This document shows, piece by piece, positions 1 through 56,041 of a stretch of DNA of 64,000 nt. How positions within the stretch are numbered: the stretch's first letter is position 1; each line of letters starts with the position of its first letter. The DNA comes from Vermamoeba vermiformis (lineage: Eukaryota): assembly GCA_045837725.1 (NCBI GenBank), contig JBEWZL010000294.1, positions 1 to 64,000 of the forward strand. Direction: 5' to 3'. Position numbers and translations under genes: made by a program. The notes beneath the pieces are model-generated. The model worked only from the letters and a program-made list of their open reading frames with translations. It was not told the DNA's origin and ran no database searches.

Positions 1-154
1 AGTCGTCCGAGTAAATAATGAGGCGTGGTATTCAGTGTAAGATAAGGTTTTTAACAAGCCTGATTTTTATTTAGGTATACAAATACAGTTTATCAACCGA
101 CGGAATCACATCTGTGAATCCGCAGCACGTGGAGTGTAGATCTACTCCACTACA
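1..154 (-). repeat. 3' LTR (truncated by the window edge)
   Basis: Base-for-base identical to 6504-6657; ends ...CACTACA. Confidence 0.97.
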
Positions 155-169
155 TTCCTCCCTTCTTTT
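155..169 (-). other. Polypurine tract
   Basis: Minus strand reads AAAAGAAGGGAGGAA immediately before the 3' LTR. Confidence 0.9.
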
Positions 170-199
170 AATTGCTCCCCTATATTAGAGTGGTCAGCT

Positions 200-3100
200 C
201 TATCTTCGACGCTGTGCGTCTTGAATCTCGACGTCAAATGTCTCTTCGAAATTTGCTAGACACGTTCTTAAAAAGTCAATGAACTCGTCATGATTTTTAA
301 GAGCGGTAATTTGTCTTGCAAAATTTCTTATTCTGTTACTACCGGTAATATTAGGTGAAGTAAAGATATTCTTTAATTCCTTTTTGACAGGTGCTATATT
401 TAGCGACGGATCCTTATCACGATATTGAACATAAACGTCGACAAGAGCATTATATAGCTCCTTTTTATGTAAAGGTTCGTTCCACGTTTCAATAAACTCT
501 GATTTCGGAATTTCAATCGGTGGATTTGGTGCGATATTTTCAGAATAGAATTGTGGTAATTTTTCCTTTACTGGTTCGACTTTATTCTCTACCTTAGGGT
601 AGTGAATATCATGTATTCGGCGTTTAACGTCCTTAATTAGAGGTTTTAATTCGTTGTTATTCATTTCCTCCCTTCTTTTAGTTAATGATGCTTTTAACGC
701 CTCTAGTTGATCAATATTACCAGATTCATCTATAATTTTGCGAATAATATCGCTATCCGATAATATTGGTTCATAATCTGTCATTGGAATATCGACGAAA
801 TTCGGATCTGGTACTGGAACTATGTCCTCGACCTGATTCGTAATTTCGCGCATTACTGGTAGCTCTACGTATTGTTTCTCTCCTCTTTCAACGGCAGGGT
901 CAAAACTGTCGTTCTCGTGTAATGAGACGAATTCTTTAGGAGTACCAAGCACTGAGGTACACGGTTTTAGGCGGTCTACGTGCACTGTCTGCTTGAGTGT
1001 CGTACCATCTGGTTTCATTAATCGATAGTTAACGGGACCTACTATCTCTTTAATCCAGTACGGTCCTGACCATGGTATACTAAGCTTTAATTTAGGTGCG
1101 TCAACACCTCGTGCCGGCCAGTAAAACCACACTCGTTCACCCAACTCGTATGAAACATCTCTTCGATTAAGGTTATAGTACTCCGTCTGTCTTTCACGAG
1201 CGAGTTTGAGTCTATTCGAAACATCTGCGTGCATGTTTTTAATTCTTTCCTTAATGGCTTCGAGACCATTCTTACTACTCGTTAACAATTCTAATGACAC
1301 ATCGGGAAACTTAAAGTCAACCAACGGGCGCGGTGAATATGTTCTTAATAACTCGAACGGCGAGTAGCCAGTTGAGGTATGTGGTGTGTCTCGGTATGCG
1401 TATTGTACGAAGGGTAAGAACAAATCCCAATCACCTTGGTTGTCATGTACGTACATCGATAGCATTACGCACAACGTGTGGTTAAACCTCTCAGTTAAAC
1501 CATTAGTTTGCGGATGATACGATGTCGAAGGAGCATGTTTCACTCCTGACGCTTCAGCTAGCGCCTTAAATACTTGACTCATGAATTGTGAACCACGGTC
1601 GGAGATTATTCTCGACATGGGTCCATATTCTAACAACACTTTCAAGAATTTCTTCGCTACTGTTAACGCAGTAATATCTTTTAAGCGGAAGCAAATAGGG
1701 AATTTCGTAAAATAGTCAGTGAAGACTAGAATGTATCTATATTTACGTGGTGTCATCGGTAACGGTCCGAGAATATCAACTCCTACTATATCGAACGGGT
1801 GTTTCGCTTCAATGGCTTGCATTTTTCCTGCTTTCAAGACTCGTGGGGTCTTCTTAGCGATACACTTTACGCAACTGCGCACGTGATCACTAATTGATTT
1901 GTACATTTTCGGCCAAAAATATCTTGATGCGATCAAATCGAATGTCCTTTGAATACCTTGATGGGCACCCAATGGATCATTGTGGAAATAATGCAATATT
2001 TCTTCACGATACTGTTCTGGTACTACGAGTCGAAGTCCAGCTGTCACTGAATGTTTTCGTTGCGGATAGTATCCGTGATACAATACTCCATCAACCATGC
2101 AGTACAGTTCTGATTCAACTAGTATTCTCTTTGCGACGCGTCTATTATTGGGTAAGTGATCGTCTTTCAGATACGCAATAATTTTTCGCAATGTACGATC
2201 TTTGCTTTGCAATTTTGCTAATTCCTTCGGATCAACAGTATCAGCGAATGTATCGTAGGATTGAATAAGGTTAACGGGTAGTCTTGATAACCCGTCAGCG
2301 TTTGCGTTCTGTGCTCCCGGTCGCGCTATCACGTCAAAGTGATAATCGCTCAGTGTCATTCTCCATCGTGCGACTCTACCGTTATGATTTTTGAACGAAT
2401 CAATATGCTCTAACGGTTTGTGATCAGTCATCACGACGAATTTCTGACCGTATAAGTACGCACGAAAGTGTTTAATACTCTCGACCATTGCTAAACACTC
2501 TCGTTCCATGATAGCGTATTTCCTTTCACTATCGGAGAATTTCTTTGAGAAGTACGCGATGGGATGTTCACTATTGTCGTAGTATTGAGTTAATACTCCT
2601 CCCATCCCATAGTCACTCGCATCCACTTGTAGAACGAACGAAACGTTCAATCTTGGGTACGCAAGGACTGGTTGTTTCGCTAACGCTTTCTTTAACCTGT
2701 TAAATGACCGTCTGACATCACTATCAATACAAAAAGGTGCATTCTTACGCAATAATTCGGTTAACGGTCGACTTATGCTGGCATAACCACGAATAAATCG
2801 CCTGTAATAACCTGTCATTCCTAGAAATGCTTTGACATCAGTAACGCTTTGCCATAAATCGATATCTAACTTGTTAATCGCTTCAATCTTTGTCGGATCT
2901 GGCGACACGCCGTTGAAATCAATCTTATGTCCTAGGTACGTAGTACTATCTTCACCGAACGAACACTTGGAACGTTTCAGTTTCAAATTAGCGTTTCTTA
3001 GTCTATCAAATACACATCTAAGATGGACCATGTGTTCTTCGAAAGTTCGTGAGAAAATCAAAATATCATCGATATATACGAGACACATTTTCCAATTCAA

Positions 3101-4765
3101 TCCTGCTAGTACCAAGTTCATTAAACGTTGGAATGTCGCTGGCGCATTCGTTAGGCCAAACGGCATCACGTTATATTCGTAAGAGCCTTCCTCCGTTATG
3201 AAAGCTGTCTTTTCTTTATCTTCTTCAGCTACTGCGATTTGATAATAGGATTGAACCAAATCGAGCGTAGTGAAATATTTCATGCCATCAAGACGTTCTA
3301 AAACATCTTCGATGCGCGGAATTGGGTACACATCTTTCTTCGTTACGCTATTCAGCTGTCGATAATCGACGCAGAATCGTTTAGTACCGTCTTTCTTTTG
3401 TACTAGCAGAATTGGACTAGACCATGGTGAACTCGATGGTCTTATAATACCAGCTTCGAGTGAGTCTTGTATATACTTCGATACGAAAGCCTTTTGACTT
3501 ATTGGCGTCCAATAAGCTCGTTGTTTGCGAGGTGGGCCGTCAGTATAAATTCTATGCGTAACTAGCGGCGTAGTTGATCTAATATCAACGGAAAACAGAT
3601 CTTTATATTCCTCTAGGAATTCGATCATGATCTTTCTCTGTTCTTCTGTTAACCGTTTCGCAATTCCCGAACTAGAAGGTTCATCAACCGGCTTGGAATT
3701 AGAATGGGCGTCTTTGATAGAGGTTACCCTCTCATTCGAATCTTTCAAACGCATTTTCTCAATTTTCCGAGTCAGTTTCAGAACTTTGCGTCGAATCTTA
3801 CGGGGCATATCATCTGGTGATTTATCACTCTTTGATGTATCTACGTAAGCAGAATCAGTATTTCTACTATCATCAGTGGTTTTGACACTGTTCGACGAAT
3901 CATTCGGCTTCGCAGCATTAGTCTTTTCTTCAAGGGCATCGAGCGTCAGAGCCTCTCCTTTCTCATCGCACCATATCTTTACATTATCTGACGCATATGC
4001 TATTGGTAGATTGCCCGAGATACTCAAACAAACGTTATGCGAAGTATTGGTGATAAAGACATCGACGTAACCATCTTTGACAGTCCGTAATTGCAACGGT
4101 ACTTGTCCATGTGAGAGTTTGAACTTCGTCGATTCTATCAAATAATCACCATCTTTAACTACACCTTTAACCTTTGCTTTCACGTTCATTCCTGAAAGCG
4201 GTTTAATTACAGCTCGTTGTACTGACATTACGAGTTGACCAGGCGGTTCTACCAACGCCGTAGTCACTCTGTTCGATGTTCCCTTTAGCACCTCGTCGGC
4301 CTTATCACTTACACCGGGTCGACTAAGCTCCTTTCGGGGCCAGATAACCTCGCCTTCGCACACAATGCGAGCTCCAGCAGCATAGAGTACGTTAGTCCCA
4401 ATGATAAGTGGGAACGAAATTTCGGGTACGTACAAAGCGTACACTCTGATTGGCGTTGCCACCAATTGGATTGTGATATCCACGAATCCTTTGACGGGCA
4501 TTAGCTCGTCGTTAGCGGCTTTAATCATATGCCCGCTATCAGTAGAAGTCACGACCAAGTTCAAAGAGTCAACAAGCTTTTTATTTATCACTGTTACAGC
4601 AGCACCAGTATCGATAAGAGCTCTCGGTACTGTGCTTCCATTCACGACCACTTTCGCTTCAGCGACATTGCTAACAGTGCCTTTTGGAACAGTTATCGTT
4701 GACAAAGTCGCGACAATGAAAGGGTTGTCTTCGTCAGTTGACTCTTCTGACTCGGTCGAATCGAG
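200..4765 (-). CDS. pol: Pol polyprotein (protease, RT, RNase H, integrase with GPY/F motif, C-terminal extension), in frame with gag
   Basis: Motifs LIDTGA, RFCVDYRQLN, YIDD, DAS/TDHKPL, HHCC zinc site, DDE core (SDRGSQF, GLTERFN) and WSGPY. The frame stays open from 4705 up to the gag TGA at 4766-4768. Confidence 0.96.
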   Translation of the reverse strand, partial: LDSTESEESTDEDNPFIVATLSTITVPKGTVSNVAEAKVVVNGSTVPRALIDTGAAVTVINKKLVDSLNLVVTSTDSGHMIKAANDELMPVKGFVDITIQLVATPIRVYALYVPEISFPLIIGTNVLYAAGARIVCEGEVIWPRKELSRPGVSDKADEVLKGTSNRVTTALVEPPGQLVMSVQRAVIKPLSGMNVKAKVKGVVKDGDYLIESTKFKLSHGQVPLQLRTVKDGYVDVFITNTSHNVCLSISGNLPIAYASDNVKIWCDEKGEALTLDALEEKTNAAKPNDSSNSVKTTDDSRNTDSAYVDTSKSDKSPDDMPRKIRRKVLKLTRKIEKMRLKDSNERVTSIKDAHSNSKPVDEPSSSGIAKRLTEEQRKIMIEFLEEYKDLFSVDIRSTTPLVTHRIYTDGPPRKQRAYWTPISQKAFVSKYIQDSLEAGIIRPSSSPWSSPILLVQKKDGTKRFCVDYRQLNSVTKKDVYPIPRIEDVLERLDGMKYFTTLDLVQSYYQIAVAEEDKEKTAFITEEGSYEYNVMPFGLTNAPATFQRLMNLVLAGLNWKMCLVYIDDILIFSRTFEEHMVHLRCVFDRLRNANLKLKRSKCSFGEDSTTYLGHKIDFNGVSPDPTKIEAINKLDIDLWQSVTDVKAFLGMTGYYRRFIRGYASISRPLTELLRKNAPFCIDSDVRRSFNRLKKALAKQPVLAYPRLNVSFVLQVDASDYGMGGVLTQYYDNSEHPIAYFSKKFSDSERKYAIMERECLAMVESIKHFRAYLYGQKFVVMTDHKPLEHIDSFKNHNGRVARWRMTLSDYHFDVIARPGAQNANADGLSRLPVNLIQSYDTFADTVDPKELAKLQSKDRTLRKIIAYLKDDHLPNNRRVAKRILVESELYCMVDGVLYHGYYPQRKHSVTAGLRLVVPEQYREEILHYFHNDPLGAHQGIQRTFDLIASRYFWPKMYKSISDHVRSCVKCIAKKTPRVLKAGKMQAIEAKHPFDIVGVDILGPLPMTPRKYRYILVFTDYFTKFPICFRLKDITALTVAKKFLKVLLEYGPMSRIISDRGSQFMSQVFKALAEASGVKHAPSTSYHPQTNGLTERFNHTLCVMLSMYVHDNQGDWDLFLPFVQYAYRDTPHTSTGYSPFELLRTYSPRPLVDFKFPDVSLELLTSSKNGLEAIKERIKNMHADVSNRLKLARERQTEYYNLNRRDVSYELGERVWFYWPARGVDAPKLKLSIPWSGPYWIKEIVGPVNYRLMKPDGTTLKQTVHVDRLKPCTSVLGTPKEFVSLHENDSFDPAVERGEKQYVELPVMREITNQVEDIVPVPDPNFVDIPMTDYEPILSDSDIIRKIIDESGNIDQLEALKASLTKRREEMNNNELKPLIKDVKRRIHDIHYPKVENKVEPVKEKLPQFYSENIAPNPPIEIPKSEFIETWNEPLHKKELYNALVDVYVQYRDKDPSLNIAPVKKELKNIFTSPNITGSNRIRNFARQITALKNHDEFIDFLRTCLANFEETFDVEIQDAQRRR

Positions 4766-6472
4766 TCAGTCATCTCTCTTTCTCTTTCCAAGGTAAGGGC
4801 GATCACGATCATCATAATGACGATCTTGGTGACCTCCGCGACCTCCTTGGCCATAGCCATCACGGCGATCTTGGTGTCCTCCGTGACCACCTCGACCTCC
4901 TCTGCCACCTCTGCCACCTCTGCCGCCTCTACCACCGCGAGTACCGGTTCTACAGTCTCTCGCGAGATGGTTCCTGCCACCGCACTTGAAACAGACGCCT
5001 GCATTTCGGAGTGCGTTAAGCATCTCAACGAAGTTAGGCACTGCATCTGTCTCATCTTGTTCCGTGTAGACTTCAAGTTGCGGTTGAGGGGCTTGCACGA
5101 CGTTCACCTTGGCGGGGGCTGGAGCTGGCGCGTCGATGAGCTTGAGGTTCTCGTGGTCAACGACCCATTGTGTCATGGCCTCGTAGGACTCGAGTCGATC
5201 CAGGTTGAGTTCAGCTTGGGCACGCATCGCTGGCGGTAACTTGTCCAAGAGTAACAAGATCTTGGTTTGTTCGTCACAGTCAGCATGGTGAATGAAGCAA
5301 TGGTTGAACTCGGCGATGAAGATCGGCGCAGATCGTCGTAGATCCCAACGATAGTTGCGAGCAGCTTGTTGAGCGTGCATTCTATTGCCAGGTGATGGAT
5401 AGGTTCGCAAGAGCCAGTTCGCAGCTTGCGTGATTGAAGCAGTATTCACGTCATATCGAGAATTAAATAACGCTCGTGGAGCGTCATCCAGGCATTCATG
5501 AAAGAAAACCACTTTCTGTCGATCCGATAAATGGTTTGACGTGCATATGCTCAGAAAGTTCGTTAACCAAGTCTTCGTGTGCCCGTTGTTGGTCTCGGGG
5601 TTGAAGATTTTAAGATTCTTTGCCTTTCTTGCTTGATCAAGACTACTGGATTTCTCCGGTGGTACAAAACCTTGCGCAAAAGGTTGAGAAGCTGGTTGGG
5701 GTTTCTTTGGACTCGCTTTTGGAGTAACAGGGACAGGTCTTTCGGTTTCTCGAGTTGCATCCAAATTCGCGGTTAGATTCGCGATCTGACTGGCGACTCT
5801 ACGGTCCACCAATTCTTCTAAATTTCGAGAATCAAAGGAGCGACTTTCAACATCCTCTCTCCACAAACGTAAAACATCATCAACGGTTAAATCAGCATCG
5901 CGTGATAAATCGTCGATGAAATTTCGTACGGAATTTGTCGGTTGGCCTGTAAATTGATTAACCGTCTGGGAGTTATCCCTTCTGGATTCACCAAATATAG
6001 GTCCTTTCTTCGCGGGTGTCTTTGGCGGAGTCACCTTCGCGTTAGGTGTTTCGGCACCAGATTTGGCCGTCGATCTGGGTGGAGTACTCGTCTTAGGTGC
6101 AGACGCTGGCGTAGTAGTTGTCTGACGATTCTCTTGTTGTTCTCCACCGGGTTGGCGACGCGTTGCTTGATCATACGTTGCTGCAAAACCTTGTTCAAGC
6201 TCCTGGCGGATCTGATTCAGTTGCTCCTGCAGTACGTTGTCGATGTTCATAGGCTGGCCGTTATTATTGTTAACACTTGTGTTGATTGCAGCAGGCTCAA
6301 CTTCCATTGACTCGATGTTGACAGGCGTGTCATCGACGTCATTGTGAACAGTTGTGGCAGTCAGTGTAGGCGGATCAGCAGTTGGTACTTCAGCAGCAGG
6401 AACGGTTCTTCTATTTCCCCTCCCTCTTCCTTTGGCGGGAGTCTTAATGTGCGGAGATGTAGCGCGAGACAT
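4766..6472 (-). CDS. gag: Gag with capsid-like region, one CCHC zinc knuckle and RGG repeats
   Basis: First ATG at 6472 (MSRATSPH); CFKCGGRNHLARDC followed by (GGR)5. Confidence 0.92.
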   Translation of the reverse strand: MSRATSPHIKTPAKGRGRGNRRTVPAAEVPTADPPTLTATTVHNDVDDTPVNIESMEVEPAAINTSVNNNNGQPMNIDNVLQEQLNQIRQELEQGFAATYDQATRRQPGGEQQENRQTTTTPASAPKTSTPPRSTAKSGAETPNAKVTPPKTPAKKGPIFGESRRDNSQTVNQFTGQPTNSVRNFIDDLSRDADLTVDDVLRLWREDVESRSFDSRNLEELVDRRVASQIANLTANLDATRETERPVPVTPKASPKKPQPASQPFAQGFVPPEKSSSLDQARKAKNLKIFNPETNNGHTKTWLTNFLSICTSNHLSDRQKVVFFHECLDDAPRALFNSRYDVNTASITQAANWLLRTYPSPGNRMHAQQAARNYRWDLRRSAPIFIAEFNHCFIHHADCDEQTKILLLLDKLPPAMRAQAELNLDRLESYEAMTQWVVDHENLKLIDAPAPAPAKVNVVQAPQPQLEVYTEQDETDAVPNFVEMLNALRNAGVCFKCGGRNHLARDCRTGTRGGRGGRGGRGGRGGRGGHGGHQDRRDGYGQGGRGGHQDRHYDDRDRPYLGKRKRDD

Positions 6473-6477
6473 GTTGA

Positions 6478-6495
6478 GATTCGTCGGGCGCACCA
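6478..6495 (-). other. Primer-binding site
   Basis: TGGTGCGCCCGACG begins 1 nt inside the 5' LTR boundary and is complementary to a tRNA 3' end ...CGGGCGCACCA. Confidence 0.85.
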
Positions 6496-6496
6496 A

Positions 6497-6657
6497 TGTA
6501 GTGAGTCGTCCGAGTAAATAATGAGGCGTGGTATTCAGTGTAAGATAAGGTTTTTAACAAGCCTGATTTTTATTTAGGTATACAAATACAGTTTATCAAC
6601 CGACGGAATCACATCTGTGAATCCGCAGCACGTGGAGTGTAGATCTACTCCACTACA
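6497..6657 (-). repeat. 5' LTR, 161 bp
   Basis: TGTAGTG...CACTACA, 7-bp inverted termini with the canonical TG...CA ends. Confidence 0.97.
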
Positions 6658-7073
6658 CTACGAGCACCACAAGACGTGCATTCGAGTTTGAGCGTGATCT
6701 TTTTGGTAGTCTTAGCCTAATTTATGTTTAGTGTTAGTTCCTTGTTTAAAAATAATAAATGTTTTGAGGTACCTTTTTATGGAAGATCTGTTTAGTTTGG
6801 CCGCCAAAACCTTTCTGTTTACGATCATAACGGCGTTTTCCTTAAGAATGGTGAGTATAAGGAGATCTATATTTGAAGATGAGTCGCATACCTTGGGCGG
6901 TCAAACGAGGAGCACCGGATTTGTATTGACTGACTTTGTGCGGTCTGTGTTTCCTGCACTCTTTGGATGCGCAGTAAGTGTTGCGTTGTTTTGGCACGTT
7001 AACCTAATCTCAGATTAATTAATCTACGGTCATTATTATTAGAGGTCTGATCTAGCATGTCAAGTCATACCAT
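6658..7073 (-). CDS. RPL36A: 60S ribosomal protein eL42 (L36a/L44), Q56 type, interrupted in exon 4 by the LTR element
   Basis: Exons 7073-7071, 7003-6892, 6840-6773 and 6716-6658 (all GT-AG) splice to [80 protein letters not shown], then the LTR begins. Confidence 0.96.
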
Positions 7074-7614
7074 TTGTAATGTTTTCTGTTCGCTTGGTTC
7101 TTGAATACAATTAGTTGAGAGCAAACTCAGATGTTGAAATAGTAAGTAATTTGACTGTCAAAAATTGACTTTTGAGTGTCAAACTTCATTTTGGTCAAAG
7201 CGGATCCCGACTTTTTCTCCGTTCTGAAATCACGTTGTTCTGCTAAACAATTCTAAGGACGTTTGGTGTATTATTGACTACATGCACCATTTAACCTACT
7301 AGCATCAAGCGGCCTCTCGGGCAAAATTTTCCGTCGACTCGGGATCTCGGCGAGAAAAACTCGTCTACAACTGAACTGCGCAACTCATTCACCGTACGTC
7401 ATATAACATTACAAACAATAAAATAAAAATTTTCTTTAATATGACCACATTACAATAGCTGCTACACGATAGGAAATTTATTTTAATTTGTAATAAATTT
7501 CTGCGGAAATGCGGCGCAAAGCGGAACAGGGATAGAATCTTTTACGCGGTAAACGTAAAAACGTAATCTTTTTTCAATTTATTTTATCTTTTAAAAGAGA
7601 ACATCGCGCAACAG

Positions 7615-9429
7615 ATGAAGCTATTCTTCCTACTTCTCACGATCTCTTGTTTCTTTGCCGACTTCGTTCGCTCCGCTCCCACCGACTTGAAGATAGATGC
7701 TGTGGTGATGCGTAACGACGGTCTCTCCGGTCCTGCTTTTGTTGCCAGCGGTGCGTCGGCAATAATTAATAATTTTTCCGATTCTCACTCACATCGATTT
7801 ATAGGATTTCCGTTGCCTCCTGGTGCCCTGCGAGCAGAAGACATCTCCTACGTAAGAGTTTTTGTCCAAGGAGTAGAGCAAGCTTGTGCCGTTGGTGCCC
7901 TACGGGGTCGCCATCCGGATGGAACGCTTCGTTCGATCGTCATAGAATTCAACTACAACATCCCCGACAACAATACTATTCCCGCTTACGTGCAGCTAGG
8001 CTCAATTAAGCGACAAGTGTTGGACATTGATTTTGTTCGTATCACCTACAAAATGGTAGCCAAAGTTATTATAACGCCTTCGGATCCGGCCTACCTCTGT
8101 TCAACGAACGCTGCTCTCACTCCGCTTGTGCCATCTAGCATGGATTCCGCCGAAGTTCAAGCATGGCAGCAAGCTATTGAGTCCGCTTGGTTTAAGATCG
8201 TTGGGTATGGTACTGCGATTTACGACTATGGATCTGGACTTATCGCGTGGTACATCCGAACTGGAGATATTCAAGCGATACGCCAGGCAGTTGGTGTAGC
8301 TACATTGGGTATCAATTACTATATTCCATTCGCCAACGACACGGATATTTGCACTAAGGAACAAATAGACGTTATAAATCCTGAACGTCTGGATGGAGAG
8401 TACCACGCATGTGGATTAACTACGGAATGGTGGAGTCTTAGGTACTACATGAATCATGCGTTTTACATGTTTTTTGGTTGGGAGCAGTACATTTATCAGT
8501 CCTGGCAACAATCTCAAATGGTCATGAGGTGGCTCACACCAACGGAATGCCTGACAAGGGATTTATCACCAAGATTTAATTTCGGAATACGACTGATTCC
8601 TACCATGATGGCATACATATCTGAAGGAATTACGAAGATCGACGGTGGTTGGGGTGCAGGCGCGGGAGATCCAGACTTCCCAACAAAATTGCCAGGAATT
8701 ATCAACTGCTTAGACTACAACAAATATAATGACTCAAGCGACTTCAGATATGGCCTTGTGGGCTTCAAGAATGAAACCGTTGACATCCCGGGATATCCCG
8801 GTTATTTCCCGACTTTTCAACTCGCAGTAGTGGCTGATTTCTTGATTACGTACTACCAAAACATTCAAGCGGACCCTCGAATTCCTCCCATGATCAAATC
8901 TATTGGAGATTTCGTCATTCGAGAGCTCGAACCAAGTATTTCAGGCGAGCCCGGGTTTCCGATTAGCTATGTCATGCAGTACGTGCCACGACAAGGCCCC
9001 CAACGACCGGCAGAACCACATCCGTGGGAGCCCTACTTGTTCCCAATGTTCACTAATACCTATGGCTTCTTGTACGCTTACTACAAAAATGATACGTACA
9101 AATTGTGGGGTATACGCTCACTCGCTCCGGAACAAATGGCCGGCTTTATTTGGATTAAAAAGGCCTGGGGAGAGGTCTATAATGGTCACAGACACTCGTT
9201 CTCTTATTATATGAACGGAGGTGCAGCTGAGGGATTGCAAAGCACCCGTCCCGGTGCGCAGATCCCGCCAGTGTCCAACACCACAGACGCAGTGGGCAAC
9301 ACAAGAGTTACCACGATTGAACCTCCACCCCAGTCTCAGACTGCTCCTGGTGCTGCTAAGGTTTCTAACGGTGTCTTCGTCGTACCGAGCGTTGCATTGC
9401 TTGTAATGACCTTCATTTCGATTCTTTAA
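7615..9429 (+). CDS. Intronless secreted, probably GPI-anchored 604-aa protein with a PcRGLX/YetA-like N-terminus
   Basis: Signal peptide; GFPLPPGAL...GRHPDGTLRS motif; Pro/Thr-rich linker; hydrophobic C-terminus. Confidence 0.75.
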   Translation: MKLFFLLLTISCFFADFVRSAPTDLKIDAVVMRNDGLSGPAFVASGASAIINNFSDSHSHRFIGFPLPPGALRAEDISYVRVFVQGVEQACAVGALRGRHPDGTLRSIVIEFNYNIPDNNTIPAYVQLGSIKRQVLDIDFVRITYKMVAKVIITPSDPAYLCSTNAALTPLVPSSMDSAEVQAWQQAIESAWFKIVGYGTAIYDYGSGLIAWYIRTGDIQAIRQAVGVATLGINYYIPFANDTDICTKEQIDVINPERLDGEYHACGLTTEWWSLRYYMNHAFYMFFGWEQYIYQSWQQSQMVMRWLTPTECLTRDLSPRFNFGIRLIPTMMAYISEGITKIDGGWGAGAGDPDFPTKLPGIINCLDYNKYNDSSDFRYGLVGFKNETVDIPGYPGYFPTFQLAVVADFLITYYQNIQADPRIPPMIKSIGDFVIRELEPSISGEPGFPISYVMQYVPRQGPQRPAEPHPWEPYLFPMFTNTYGFLYAYYKNDTYKLWGIRSLAPEQMAGFIWIKKAWGEVYNGHRHSFSYYMNGGAAEGLQSTRPGAQIPPVSNTTDAVGNTRVTTIEPPPQSQTAPGAAKVSNGVFVVPSVALLVMTFISIL

Positions 9430-23698: not shown

Positions 23699-25342
23699 AT
23701 GACTGTTAATAGAGTAGTATTATTACTTACTTTAGCGATTATTGTAGTCGTTAAGTGCGATCCGTTGCCGTTGTTAGGAGAAAAAATCGGCTGGTGGGTA
23801 AGATCAATCACCGATTAATAATTAAATAGCCAAAAATTTAACTATGATTCTTAGGCAACTACTCCGGACTTTAACGAGCTTCCGGTTGATATTTATTCGA
23901 ACGCCCCGACAATTGCTACATCCAAAGACAGGCTGATCTATTTTAATTTTTGGTTCAATGCAACAGGTCCTTTTTATACTGCCCTCGTTATACTACGACG
24001 CAACGAGTCTGGAGTGTATGAAAAGCTGGCTCTGTTCGATAATCAGACGATTTTTGACCAAAACTTTTTCTATCCTGGAATCACGGATGTGGCGACAAAC
24101 GGCGAATGGATCTCAATGGTTTATAATATTGGGCCTACTTTTGGAACGAATTTCATGTTAATCCGCGTTTCTGACGACGGCACAATAAGCGACATGCAAA
24201 AACCGGATCGACAAGGCTTCAACTTTTTCTTCGCAAGATTTCTCTCGGACGGATCTGTCATCGCAATCTCATCGAACGCCAATCAAATATCAGTACCAAG
24301 ATTATTAACCTTCAAATTGGTCAATGACACTTGGACACTTGTTGACGTTTCTTTACTCAGTGCCAGTATTTTGACAGCTGGTGGCTACTGTTGTGACCCA
24401 CAAGTTCCTGATACTCTCCCGATATTTGCACTGACGGACACGCAATTCATCGCCACTGATAACGCATATATCTACATCTACACTCGACTCGTCAACGGAT
24501 CTTGGACTTTGGACACGAAATTTCCAGCTCGAAGTGGCAAAACAACGTCGATTGGTTGGAACGGCGTTGACGCCATTCTGACTGGCATGGCTAAAAATGA
24601 TCAATTCGTGCTCTATCAAAAGACTAGTAATGGTACTTGGGATGGATCCGTCGTTGTGACGAGTGCGGATGTGGGCTACACCGGCACGTCTAGCTTTGGC
24701 ATATCAACACTTGCCGTCAATACCGACACGTTCTTGGTACTGGCCCCGAACGCCCAAGACGCTGCTTCAGATATTGGAGGCAGAATATTAATGCTGCAGC
24801 GATTCGAAGGTCAATGGTACCTCGCTGGACAACTCTTGGTTCAATTTCCTAACGCTTATAACGAGTTCAGTCAGTTCAACCTTGCTGCCAACGACAGACA
24901 CGTCTTATTTCCGAACAATACGGGCGTATACTCGTTGCCCTTATGCATGTTCGAGCCGTTGAAGTACCAATGTCAAAGTCAGATCTCGCTCGACACGTGC
25001 AACTTTGGAGATTTTAACGCAGGATTGGCTTGTAATTCTACTCAAACGGACTGCGGTGCACGTGTCAGTACAATGGTGAATAGACTAAACTTTGAAAACA
25101 ATCAAGTTACCATCGATTTTTCACTGAATCGATTCGGAGCAATGCCGCAGTCACAATCAGTTAGTATTCAGTGCAAAGAGCTGTCTTCAGGGACCCCTGG
25201 CTCCTCACCGTCTTCTGCCCCGAATTTCATTCCAGTCGAAAATACTCCAGGCCGTGGCCAAGTCACGAGCACAGCCCAATACAACTCCAATATGATCACC
25301 TTGTCCTTCGTAGTGATCATCTTGTTCAGCGTTATGTTCTAG
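23699..25342 (+). CDS. Secreted, probably GPI-anchored beta-propeller-like protein
   Basis: A signal-peptide exon (MTVNRVVLLLTLAIIVVVKC) splices in frame to an exon starting at 23855; recurring (N)GxW blade-like units; Cys-rich segment; hydrophobic C-terminus. Confidence 0.7.
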
Positions 25343-48217: not shown

Positions 48218-49367
48218 ATGGTTCAAGCAAGTGCAGCTTCTCGTAGCATTACTCGACAACAATACGAAGAAGGCATCGTTACTCTTCGAGACTCAGTCAG
48301 GTCAAATGCGTTGAAATACAAGTGGCTACATTTGGTTGCTTGGGAGCTGGCAGAAAATTCTTGGGAGCTCTTTGGAAACCTTAGAGAGTCTAGCTGCTGC
48401 GATAAAGACGGGCTTAGACTATGGATCAACAATTTTGTTAACAAGTAAGTTGAAAATTTAGGTTTTACTTTTTACTCCGGATCAACAACGGAACAACTTT
48501 AAATTGAATGTCGTTAATTAATTTATACAAAGAAACCGTATTATTTACTAATCACGTTATTATAGTGCGATTGGATTTCAATTGCCGACTAGAGAATTTA
48601 TGCTGTATCTGCTTTTGATCTCGTTCACAAAAGTAGAATCCAACAGAGGTCGCAGAAAAGGCGCTGCTACTATTAGGCGCACTTCGGAAATTTTCTTCTT
48701 TGATGCCGCAGAAGAGGACAAGCGCTTACAACGAGTGCTATGGAATCTGCGAAAGTACTTCCACGTCGAGATTGCGGACTCAGAAGTTAATGGCTTGACT
48801 ACTATTCATCATGAACGCTTCGCTACAGTTTCTGATTGGAGCGACGATGGCCAGGTCACGAGATTTCTAAATTCAATCCGACCTTCGAACAATACTGGCG
48901 GTGAAAGCCCGAAGAGCAACAAAAAGAGCAGAGTTGGAAGAAAGCCTAAGAGCCCTAAGCAAACTAAAGGAAAGAACGCGATCAAGCCTGAGCCTTCTTG
49001 GAGTTCAGATTCAGAACCGGATGTCTCGTACTTTAGTTCCGAAGAGTCTTACTCGCATGAGGCCGCTGCAGGCGCCGCGGCATATACTGCGCAGTCATCG
49101 GACTCTATGGCTATCGAAGGCTACGAGAACCGAGCAGGATCTAATTTTAGCATCAACGAATCCGTTCAATTTGCGCAGGAATTCATGCTTGCGCCTCCTC
49201 GCACGTTCAACTTTGAAGAAGTTCTGCAATATAGCATTTCAAGGCTGCATCAAGTCTGGTCAACCAATGAGCCTGAGCGCATCCAAAGCTACCTCGACCA
49301 TTTGGACGCATTTTTTAATCCTGCATCCGCTTCTGCCAACGTCTACGCAGAAAATTTTCCTTATTAA
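48218..49367 (+). CDS. Hypothetical protein, paralog of 54969-56041
   Basis: Two exons joined by a phase-2 intron; basic and Ser-rich segments. Confidence 0.75.
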
Positions 49368-52286: not shown

Positions 52287-54683
52287 ATGATTCGACAACT
52301 TCTTTTGATTTCAGTGTTGGCTGCGCTACTCGCCTGCGCATCTGCTGGTTTTCAACTGACCTTCAGCGAAGAGTTCAATGGCCAATATAAGCTGAATACT
52401 ACTCTCTGGAATACTTTCTATCATTTCGCACCATCTACGATCAACGGCGAACTGCAGTACTACTCACCGGATTCGTTCAGTTTTGGTTCTTCGTACCTCC
52501 GCATCATTGGCGAACGCCGAACTGTTAATGGCTTTAATTATACATCAGGGGCTATTACTACTAAGGATCGCTGGTCCCAAGCTTTCGGCTACTTCGAGAT
52601 GCGCGCCAGATTTCCAACGGGCAAAGGACTTTGGCCTGCCTTTTGGTTATTGCCTCAAAACGCAGCTGGAGGTACGTTATTAACATACTTTATTATGATT
52701 ATATTATTAAATTGTTGAAATCTATATTTGGAATCGAAATTTATGCGTAACAGTGTGACACGTGTCAAATTTCCCGTGGTTCATGAATTAGCGATAAAAA
52801 GATTCTTCATTTCAATTAATTGTTCCGTTTATTTACTTCTAGGAGGCATAATTGAGATCGACATCATCGAGTCATTGCAACAAAACCCCGAAAAGGCGTA
52901 TTTGACCTATCACTGCAATTCTACCTACACGGCGTACGGCACGTATTCATCCGCGGCACTGGCAGACGGTAGTTGGCACACGTACAGCGTGGAATGGACT
53001 CCGAACATTATCATCTGGTACATCGACGGCGTGGCTCGTTTTAACGTCACTCAATGCGTGCCAAACCTGCCCACGTACATCTTGGCCAATATGGCTATCG
53101 GAGGCTGGCCCGGCCCTCCAAATGCCACGACGCCGTTCCCTAACTACATGGACATCGATTACATTCGTGCGTACAAGTACGTGTCATCTGGAGGCTCGTA
53201 CTTGACTGGTCCTGGCAACGGTATTGCCTACTCAAATCCGACCATTGCCGCGGCTCCACGTGTCACTTTGAACTATCCTGTTGTTGTGCCCGAGACCGTC
53301 ACTGCAGGCAGTACCGTGCAGCTTCAAGTAACGATTATTGCTGGCGGATCCGGCCTCTCAAACAGCATCCTGTCGTACAGCATTTATTACCACGGCAACA
53401 ATACACAGATCGCTACCGGCTCTACAACAGGCATTACAATAGCGGCAGGCTCGTCTAAAGCATTTACGTTCAATGTGGCCTTGTCTTCAAGCATAGCCAA
53501 TGGATATTATCGTGTGGCTTATGGCGTGTTCGACTCTTCTTGGAACAATTTGTACTGGCAGAATGCAGCGACAGTCTTCGGAGTCAATGCAATCGTTGGG
53601 GGCCGCGGAGAAGAAGGCTGGCAATTGACTTTTGCCGAAGAATTCAATTCGCAGACTGCTCTGAACTCGTCAGTTTGGAACAATTTCTATCACTACGGAC
53701 CTAAATCTGTCAACTCCGAGCTTCAATTCTACGCACCAGATGCCTTTAGCTATGGATCGAGCGCAAATTTGCGCATTGCAGCTCAACAGCGTGCTACGTA
53801 CGGCTACAACGACACGTCAGGTGTCATCACGACGAAAAATTTCTTCACGCAGACTTACGGCTACTTTGAAATCCGAGCGAGATTTCCTTCGGGCAAAGGC
53901 TTCAATCCGATCTTCAAATTGGCCAGTCAAGACACGACTAAAGGCAACTCGATCAACATTGCGAATAATATTGGCGATCAGAAATCAGTCACGATGTCAG
54001 TCACGTGCGCGTCATCCTCGACGTATTCTAGTACCTATTCTAACGTGAGTTTGGCTGACGGAAGCTTCCATACTTATGGTCTGCAATGGACTTCTACGGC
54101 ATTGACTTGGTACATTGACGGCGTGGTCAGATCCACGACCTCTTCGTGCTTGCCGAACAACCCGTTGTACCTGATTGCCAGCATGGCTGTCGGCGGAATA
54201 ACTGCGGGAAATCCTACCATTAACACCACGTTCCCTTCGTACTACGAAATCGATTACATTCGTGCGTACAAATACGTCGCATCCAACGGCATCGTTCTTG
54301 ATGGACCTAATCGTGGTGCTTCATTTACTCCGGCAAGTGCTGCTTTACCTACTATAACACTTCAAAATCCTGTTGCTGCTCCGTACAATGTTTCTCGTGG
54401 ATCTACATTGCAATTGAACGTGACCGTCTTGGTCGGTGGATCTGGTCTCAGCAATGCTAAATTTGGACCAAAAATTGTTCACACTAGTGACGCCACGTCA
54501 GTCACTTCATTAATTCAGACTGGTGTTACGGTCACCGCTAGTCAAACGAAACAATTCTCGTTCAGTTGGAGCGTGCCATCAACTTTGGAGACTGGTTATT
54601 ATACTGTCGGATATACCGCGGCTGATTCAAGCGGAAATACTATATTTTCAGAAAATAGCGACACTTTAGTATTCGTAAAATAA
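52287..54683 (+). CDS. Secreted tandem GH16 beta-glucanase (GH16-Ig-GH16-Ig)
   Basis: FSEEFNG, GYFEMRA, GLWPAFWLL, EIDIIE, WHTYSVEW, IDYIRAY; the whole module is duplicated; intron 52672-52842. Confidence 0.93.
52756..52767. promoter_or_regulatory. Intronic palindrome TGACACGTGTCA
   Basis: In the single GH16 intron. Confidence 0.6.
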
Positions 54684-54968: not shown

Positions 54969-56041
54969 ATGGAAGTTATTCAGGCAAATCCAAGAAGTGT
55001 TGGGCCGCTGCGCAAATCCGTCGATAAATGGAAGGAATTCGTTAACAAGAACAATAGGTTCTCTGATAACAATAATTATACGCTAAGAGTGGTAACTTGT
55101 TTTTCCGAACAATCGCCAGTGAGCAGAGAAGAATACGACGACATTGTCAATCAGCTCCAAAAATACGGGATGAAGCGGATCGGCAGGGACTTATTCGCTT
55201 TGTTGGCAGCCCAATTTTTCGATTATAAGAAGTAAGATTCATACTATTACATGAAATATTATTTTCCTTTCGTTTTTGATTGATCATCCAAGAGATCTCA
55301 TAATTCTTTTTTCGTGCCAGGCATCACTTCGTCATCCCACTTGATGACTTTGCAGTGATTCTATTCAAGGTCAACAAGTACAAAGAAGACTCTAACAAGG
55401 GTCGGGGCTCTTCCCGACGCAGGATAACGATATCCAACCTTCAGGATCAAATCGAAAGTCAGTTTTCCGATCCTGTAACCGAGAATGTGGCCTGCAAAAA
55501 GACAGAACTACTGTTAAGGAAGTACTTCCAGATAGAAACGTTCGAAAAGGACGTCACTGCTTATCATCCAGAGCTGACTCTCAACGTAACGAATATGGAC
55601 GAATTGATAATGGCCATCAAAAGAATTAAACCGAAGAAAGCGCCCAAGAAAGAAGGAGAAGACAATGCAAGGAACTTGCGGAACAGTTTTGAAACGGTCT
55701 ACGTGCCTTCGCGGAAAAGCAACTCAAGTTTATCTGAAAGTGAGGAGGAGCCGACCGAAAGCGCTATGGTAGTCGAGTGCAAGCCACCCCAACAATACAA
55801 CCCTAGCAATACTTTCACTACAAGGAATACTTTGGACTTGTTTCATGCGGCTCCGGAAGAAAAGCTGTCAATGAATTCGCCTCCACATGTCTACGCCAAA
55901 CAACCGCTGCCAAATCCGACAATATCATTTCCTACTGCTTATGCCGAACTATTCGACACTATCAATCAAAAGACGACTTGTCTAAGGACGGTAGAAGACG
56001 TTCTGAGGTTCAAGGAATACGTTGCGAAGTTTAATCTTTGA
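54969..56041 (+). CDS. Hypothetical protein, paralog of 48218-49367
   Basis: Two exons with a phase-2 intron; shares SNxGR and LRKYFx(V/I)E motifs. Confidence 0.75.

Follow-up and report, generated by a model that had tools for sequence, protein, structure and literature searches.

In this study we describe a ribosomal protein eL42 gene whose fourth exon is interrupted, very probably by a real integration event, by an LTR retrotransposon of the Ty3/gypsy group. The proposal as a whole, which we regard as likely, is that a 6,664-bp element was inserted recently into exon 4, that it is present at full dose in the sequenced sample, and that eL42 is supplied by a paralogue; the last of these parts, taken by itself, is slightly favoured. 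Throughout, the window is the whole stretch of DNA analysed (64,000 nucleotides). An initial annotation of the window had placed a young LTR retrotransposon, in the sense orientation, within the coding exon of eL42. That description is well supported by a break that falls exactly at the first base of the LTR, by the in-frame tail found in the mRNA of a relative, by identical LTRs and by open gag and pol frames.

Four public runs were compared with the window over positions 5600-7700. The DNA run X1, the likely source of the assembled sequence, was used in the form of Logan contigs. Run X4 is RNA (its contigs are spliced) from a close relative, referred to below as organism B, and its contigs are 90-100% alike to the window. 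Raw RNA reads were taken from runs X18 and X20, which carry the same species label as X1 and whose strain may differ from that of the source; about 13 million records were read per run, and the number of reads obtained was not used as a measure of expression.

The four exons of the eL42 gene (7073-6658, minus strand) are separated by three introns, all three with GT..AG borders (Table 1). The placement of exon 1 as a methionine codon only agrees with the PDB alignments, in which the first residue of exon 2 falls on residue 2 of the chains. When the exons were searched against Pfam, exons 3 and 4 scored 26.5 and 28.1 bits, respectively, over the curated cut-off of 25 bits for Ribosomal_L44 (PF00935), and the two matches cover profile positions 22-62 of 76. 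Exon 2 alone matched no Pfam family; searched with phmmer against the PDB, it matched 48 distinct sequences at E ≤ 0.001, almost all of them named eL42, L44, L36a or L42. The top match was 7pzy_AP (E 1.2e-11), with residues 1-37 of the query on residues 2-38 of a chain of 106. The best of the exon 2 matches are entries which we take to be of fungal, apicomplexan and plant ribosomes.

The spliced reading is open for 80 codons, without frameshift or internal stop, and keeps all four zinc-binding cysteines (Cys12, Cys17, Cys74 and Cys77). The annotation's description of a spliced eL42 gene with intact splice sites and no further lesion is therefore confirmed by the open frame, the GT..AG introns and the Pfam and PDB matches, and so is the course of its reading, which passes from ...LECTSCGAR into the 5′ LTR in sense and stops after SVVE at 6647-6645. 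Exon 4 aligns to residues from about 62 to 81 of PDB chains that are 103-106 residues long, so that about 25 C-terminal residues are missing. The length of these chains bears out the expectation that a tail of roughly this size should follow the break. The full length of eL42 (about 103-106 residues, with a conserved C-terminal tail) is thus not reached in this copy, which holds 80 eL42 residues, and the gene is a member of the eL42 family shortened by the insertion rather than a non-member.

The cysteines of exon 2 are spaced as C-x4-C. By eye, the introns (6717-7070, minus strand) have donors of the forms GTATGA and GTATGC, together with an ACTAAC-like branch in intron 3, and look fungal. 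An animal host, namely a bdelloid rotifer, was at first considered in view of the short introns, the neighbouring gene of bacterial appearance and the presence of two diverged gene copies; it was set aside on account of the C-x4-C spacing and of the L42/L44-type names borne by the top PDB matches to exon 2, with the look of the introns as weak further evidence. The host is thus probably not an animal. No second eL42 gene was found within the 64 kb by local tblastn, which returned the gene itself and two chance matches (E 1.3 and 4.5). Exon 2 extended by nine intron bases (40 amino acids) gave no three-word match among the proteins of 71 to 2,000 residues in a large protein collection. Scans of metagenome contigs with the 29-nt stretch adjoining the break and with a degenerate pattern of the exon 4 residues gave 0 matches each.

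Table 1. Features of the interrupted eL42 gene and of the inserted element, in window coordinates.
Feature	Position	Strand	Basis
Putative eL42 exon 1, start codon alone	7071..7073	-	ATG then GTATGACT
Predicted eL42 intron 1, 67 nt, GT..AG	7004..7070	-	Sequence alone
eL42 exon 2, residues 2-38 and base 1 of codon 39, with Cys12 and Cys17	6892..7003	-	PDB phmmer, translation
eL42 intron 2, 51 nt, GT..AG	6841..6891	-	Joint 6839>6891 (cut +1) in organism B RNA contig
eL42 exon 3	6773..6840	-	Pfam Ribosomal_L44, E 8.5e-06, profile 22-43 of 76
eL42 intron 3, 56 nt, GT..AG	6717..6772	-	Joint 6715>6772 (cut +1) in organism B RNA contig
eL42 exon 4, ending past codon 80 (...LECTSCGAR) with two bases of a Ser codon; Cys74 and Cys77	6658..6716	-	Pfam Ribosomal_L44, E 2.7e-06, profile 44-62 of 76; PDB chains; organism B contig
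LTR-derived tail: base 3 of the Ser codon, V V E, stop TAG (6647-6645)	6645..6657	-	Spliced reading
5′ LTR, 161 nt, TGTAGTG...CACTACA, AATAAA at 6574-6569	6497..6657	-	Sequence
Primer binding site (PBS), starting TGG, one base past the LTR	6482..6495	-	Direct reading
gag, 568 aa, CCHC zinc knuckle, Gly-Arg-rich tail, ending at TGA (4768-4766)	4766..6472	-	Reading frame, domains
pol, 1,521 codons following the TGA and in frame with gag; encodes protease, RT, RNase H and integrase, plus a tail of 250 aa that matches no family	200..4765	-	Pfam, PDB
Polypurine tract (PPT) adjoining the 3′ LTR	155..180	-	Sequence
3′ LTR, first 154 of 161 nt; last 7 nt, any target-site duplication and the remainder of eL42 would fall left of the window	1..154	-	Identity to 6504-6657

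Host sequence gives way to the LTR at 6658/6657, and homology to eL42 stops at base 1 of the LTR. The organism B run holds an eL42 contig (record 9; 259 nt, depth 171) from which introns 2 and 3 have been removed at the predicted borders. The contig has 2 other letters in 68 in exon 3 and 4 in 58 in exon 4 (6 in 126), so that the two copies are about 95% alike and differ by about 5% in their exons. The contig is the deepest of those shown for its run in this region (171 vs 2.4-23.5); contigs of the same run upstream of the neighbouring gene have no other letters in 93 and in 54 letters. Record 9 fits the window up to exactly 6658 and has 99 letters left over. The 30 letters past 6658, read by hand, continue in frame as S-F-K-P-I-K-R-C-K-K, which is the start of the conserved eL42 tail. 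Because the mRNA of the relative continues in frame beyond 6658, the break sits within a coding exon. The host sequence ends at the terminal TG of the LTR, which is also the point at which the relative's mRNA departs, and this coincidence argues for a real integration, since a random wrong join would hardly ever produce it.

The DNA run was less direct at this site. A host contig of 6,147 nt stops at 6678, and positions 6665-6677 are uncovered. No contig bridging 6658/6657 was seen, and no loose end before 6658, of the kind that an empty site would leave, was listed; such contigs show presence, not absence. Three of the 32 contigs lie only partly on the stretch, each of them otherwise accounted for. 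The end of the host contig at 6678 implies that another sequence in the run shares 6678-6707 and differs at 6677, and could mean that the site exists in another form as well; no repeat of the words around 6678 that could cause the contig to end was found within the window. The loose ends before 6497 (3′ flank) and behind 6661 (5′ flank) were read by hand in all frames, and neither encodes the eL42 tail; they were taken as the flanks of other copies of the element.

The loose end at 6661 also shows that the 5′ flank of a second copy has the same four bases next to the LTR (GTAG on the element strand; window 6658-6661) and then diverges. The common GTAG may reflect a target preference of the integrase, as judged from these two sites only. 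Around the break, the first bases of the LTR and the last bases of the host can fold into a hairpin (6625-6665, minus strand; 41 nt, -15.3 kcal/mol) whose sequence is imperfectly palindromic around AGATCT.

The element lies in sense to eL42, and its full length would be 6,664 bp. Its direct LTRs are of the TG..CA type; a PBS follows the 5′ one and a PPT precedes the 3′ one. The two LTRs are identical at 154 of 154 bases (154-1 compared with 6504-6657), and the window holds no other copy of the LTR. A search for the tRNA that would pair with the PBS found no tRNA gene in the window. In the pol ORF of 1,501 amino acids, Pfam placed the protease at 18-105, RVT_1 at 435-595, RNase H at 664-788 and the integrase at 895-1248; the integrase follows RT and RNase H, which is the Ty3/gypsy order. 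Among solved structures, to which this ranking of relatives is confined, the best matches of pol were Ty3 Gag-Pol (7q5b_A, E 2e-120) and Ty3 RT (4ol8_A, E 2e-86), followed by an 'Enzymatic polyprotein' (8r0s_A, 2.6e-60), by RTs of foamy and gamma-type retroviruses (about 1e-30) and by HIV RT (about 1e-11). By domain order, closest relatives and the presence of LTRs, PBS and PPT, the element is an autonomous Ty3/gypsy (Metaviridae) LTR retrotransposon. No chromodomain was found in it by Pfam. The gag and pol regions form one frame interrupted by a single TGA followed by CTG (window 4740-4790, minus strand), with no start codon in the 20 codons that follow, an arrangement that suggests production of gag-pol by stop-codon read-through and not by frameshift.

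Depths in X1 were compared with that of the eL42 host contig, which served as the flank reference (305.6). Most LTR copies in the run lack 2 nt in the T run at 6552, a loss that neither LTR of the window element has. The LTR form of the window element had a depth of 603.1 (1.97 times the flank) and the other form 2132.7 (6.98 times); all LTRs together reached 2735.8 (8.95 times), and the inside of the element 965-1007 (3.2-3.3 times). These values are word depths of contigs and not copy numbers, and the 2-nt variant may not be private to the window element. The ratios for the LTRs are within 0.05 of whole numbers, and no other letters were found in X1 anywhere in 6678-7700. Such depths would be expected of three full copies and nine LTRs in a sample that is haploid or homozygous throughout, with the element on every copy of the flank, and the ratio of 1.97 for the window form speaks against an empty allele.

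In LTRs as short as these, the absence of differences over 154 nt only bounds the divergence to below about 1.9%, which is less than the exon difference of about 5% between the gene and its counterpart in organism B. The insertion is probably recent, given that the two LTRs do not differ, that gag and pol are open and that the run holds several copies identical to one another; on the same grounds the element family is very probably still mobile.

Runs X18 and X20 each yielded 24 reads for eL42, all of them on exon 3 only, all lying only partly on it, and 90-99% alike to the window; none of the 48 reads was at least 99% alike. Four differences from the window, at 6800, 6803, 6827 and 6830, are fixed in this mRNA (present in 22/22 or 21/21 reads in X18 and in 21/21 or 23/23 in X20), and all four are synonymous third-position changes. 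The parts of the reads that overhang into exons 2 and 4, taken from a hand-read consensus of the loose ends (for exon 2 from X20), encode the residues of the window although the bases differ at 7 of 30 and at 6 of 30 positions. Loose ends in X20 that resemble unspliced reads (3 and 7 reads) have unrelated sequence at both borders of exon 3. No read in either run fell on exons 2 or 4 of the window copy, on the junction, on the LTR or the rest of the element, or on the neighbouring gene. The disrupted copy may be silent in the strain of these runs, or the runs may come from a diverged lineage.

The diverged, spliced eL42 mRNA means that the species label covers a second eL42 gene, and an old one. 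As the scored differences are synonymous only, the window copy was under purifying selection until recently. The annotation had reasoned that the host must have another allele or a paralogue. Its second option gains from an mRNA with the same decoded residues under the same species label, while the first, an empty allele, is disfavoured by the depths. The putative paralogue of X18 and X20 could itself be the orthologue of a cryptic sister lineage.

A gene divergent from eL42 (7615-9429, plus strand) begins 541 bp from the eL42 start codon and is an intron-free ORF of 604 amino acids. By eye, its product has a start resembling a signal peptide and a hydrophobic end. It matched no Pfam family, and only three homologues were found among 5.8 billion proteins (best identity 62%); the nearest Atlas clusters are all bacterial (score 0.85), which is offered as a lead only. 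RNA contigs of organism B show a GT..AG intron in the 5′ leader of this gene (window 7394-7597, plus strand) with two acceptors (7393>7459 and 7393>7598), and two haplotypes at 7632-7660. Elsewhere in the window, an ORF of 651 amino acids (52728-54683, plus strand) has a glycoside hydrolase family 16 domain (E 4.1e-29) with weak matches to laminin G and SKN1/KRE6, and the long ORFs at 24014-25342, 48582-49367 and 55355-56041 matched no Pfam family.

Other readings of the locus were weighed against these results. The insertion might be heterozygous, or polymorphic among nuclei or cells, with an intact allele of the same locus providing eL42. Such an allele would account for the sequence in X1 that shares 6678-6707 with the host contig and departs at 6677, and the two haplotypes of organism B in the neighbouring gene indicate that close relatives may be diploid. 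Against it, no loose end before 6658 is listed for X1, whose three partly fitting contigs (of 32) are otherwise explained; the LTR form of the element stands at 1.97 times the flank depth and not at 1.0, and X1 is without other letters across 6678-7700. An intact allele of a ribosomal protein gene would also be expected to yield RNA reads on exons 2 or 4 of this copy, and the RNA runs had none, an argument that holds only if they are of the same strain. Taken together, we judge this reading unlikely.

Still less probable is an artefact of assembly, in which eL42 was wrongly joined to the LTR, or the path through the repeated 6.3-kb inside of the element was wrongly chosen, so that eL42 would carry a solo LTR or nothing at all. 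At least about three near-identical insides of the element are present in X1, a repeat that assemblers can cross wrongly, the junction is not covered by any X1 contig, and the contigs for the 3′ flank (before 6497) and for the other 5′ flank (behind 6661) are not eL42. A random join would nevertheless almost never place the end of the host sequence precisely on the TG that opens the LTR and on the departure point of the relative's mRNA; a wrong join within the element would still leave an LTR in the exon; and both assembled LTRs are of the rarer form, which is found at twice the flank depth. The least probable of these alternatives is that the eL42 copy was already dead, or was a partial duplicate, before the insertion, so that nothing functional was lost. 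No RNA read of the window copy was found in X18 or X20, and the exon 2 query with its three residues read from the intron had no match among proteins of 71-2,000 residues, a weak point that concerns sampling only. Against a dead copy stand the 80 open codons, the three GT..AG introns and the four cysteines, the finding that all scorable differences from the diverged eL42 mRNA (4 of 4 sites in exon 3) are synonymous, and the orthologue of organism B (about 95% alike), which is spliced and deep (171 vs 2.4-23.5).

The preferred reading remains a recent insertion, present at full dose, into a functional eL42 gene. The element would have integrated in sense between window bases 6658 and 6657. The insertion severs the first 80 codons from those for about 25 residues at the C terminus, among them the conserved KRCK-type tail, and four residues encoded by the element end the reading. 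With the element on every copy of the locus in the sequenced sample, as the depths suggest, this eL42 gene would be knocked out. The cell would then be supplied by the second, older eL42 gene, which appears to have introns in the same positions on either side of exon 3. This gene would encode the same residues where decoded, with about one fifth of the bases different in two 30-letter stretches (exons 2 and 4).

A transcript reading into the element from the ribosomal protein promoter would encounter the AATAAA of the LTR, which lies 84 nt into it; the whole U3 precedes this signal in such a transcript, which would thus probably end there. Its predicted product is a stump of 84 residues that keeps the four zinc cysteines. 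As the stop codon (6647-6645) lies in the last exon, the mRNA should escape nonsense-mediated decay. The annotation had proposed that this promoter could drive transcription into the element, a proposal that found no backing here, with no reads in X18 or X20 on the junction, the LTR or the other exons of the copy; the chimeric eL42-LTR reads that it had suggested looking for were likewise absent from both runs. A more far-reaching version of the account can be put forward only as a long shot: an active Ty3/gypsy family, perhaps with a preference for GTAG-type targets, would have disabled one member of an old pair of eL42 genes, at full dose and in a haploid host, and read-in ending at the poly(A) signal of the LTR would yield a stable 84-residue stump. 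This stump would retain the zinc knuckle as well as the loop close to the E site, and could enter or compete for ribosomes (as a dominant or specialised-ribosome allele) or feed expression of the element.

The element resembles Ty3 of Saccharomyces cerevisiae in the order protease-RT-RNase H-integrase, in its TG..CA LTRs, in a PBS starting with TGG, in the PPT and in the CCHC motif of gag. Ty3 uses a +1 frameshift for gag-pol and lands at the start sites of tRNA genes; the window element, by contrast, has gag and pol in one frame with a single TGA between them, and its landing site is the coding exon of a protein gene. Set beside Ty3/gypsy elements, its LTR is only 161 nt long, and Pfam finds no chromodomain.

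As to the host gene, loss of one RPL42 copy is tolerated in yeast. The situation described here is like that of yeast RPL42A and RPL42B in having two genes for one zinc-binding eL42, the second represented here by an mRNA with the same decoded residues and diverged silent sites; that the two share one genome is presumed. It is unlike the yeast case in being a natural knock-out by a transposon and not a laboratory deletion. Yeast RPL42 A/B are listed as zinc-binding, CxxC-bearing paralogues (PMC13090322). The present allele is also comparable to the Minute alleles of Drosophila in that a mobile element interrupts a ribosomal protein gene. Minute alleles arise mostly from DNA transposons inserted in the 5′ regions of genes that are single-copy and sensitive to dose, in an animal that is diploid. 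The present allele has an LTR element in the last exon of the coding sequence, in a eukaryote that is probably not an animal, and the element appears to be at full dose. A literature search over titles and the openings of abstracts found no report of a retrotransposon in eL42.

A transposon in one of two redundant copies is an expected event and implies no new kind of biology. In practical terms, annotators should mark this eL42 gene as disrupted and can use the element as a starting entry for a repeat library. The locus is best seen as a well-formed insertion, probably a recent one, in a gene with a redundant second copy: an ordinary case of gene disruption by a mobile element that also marks an active family. 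As a natural null of one eL42 gene, it could be used to gauge the redundancy of ribosomal protein duplicates in this lineage.
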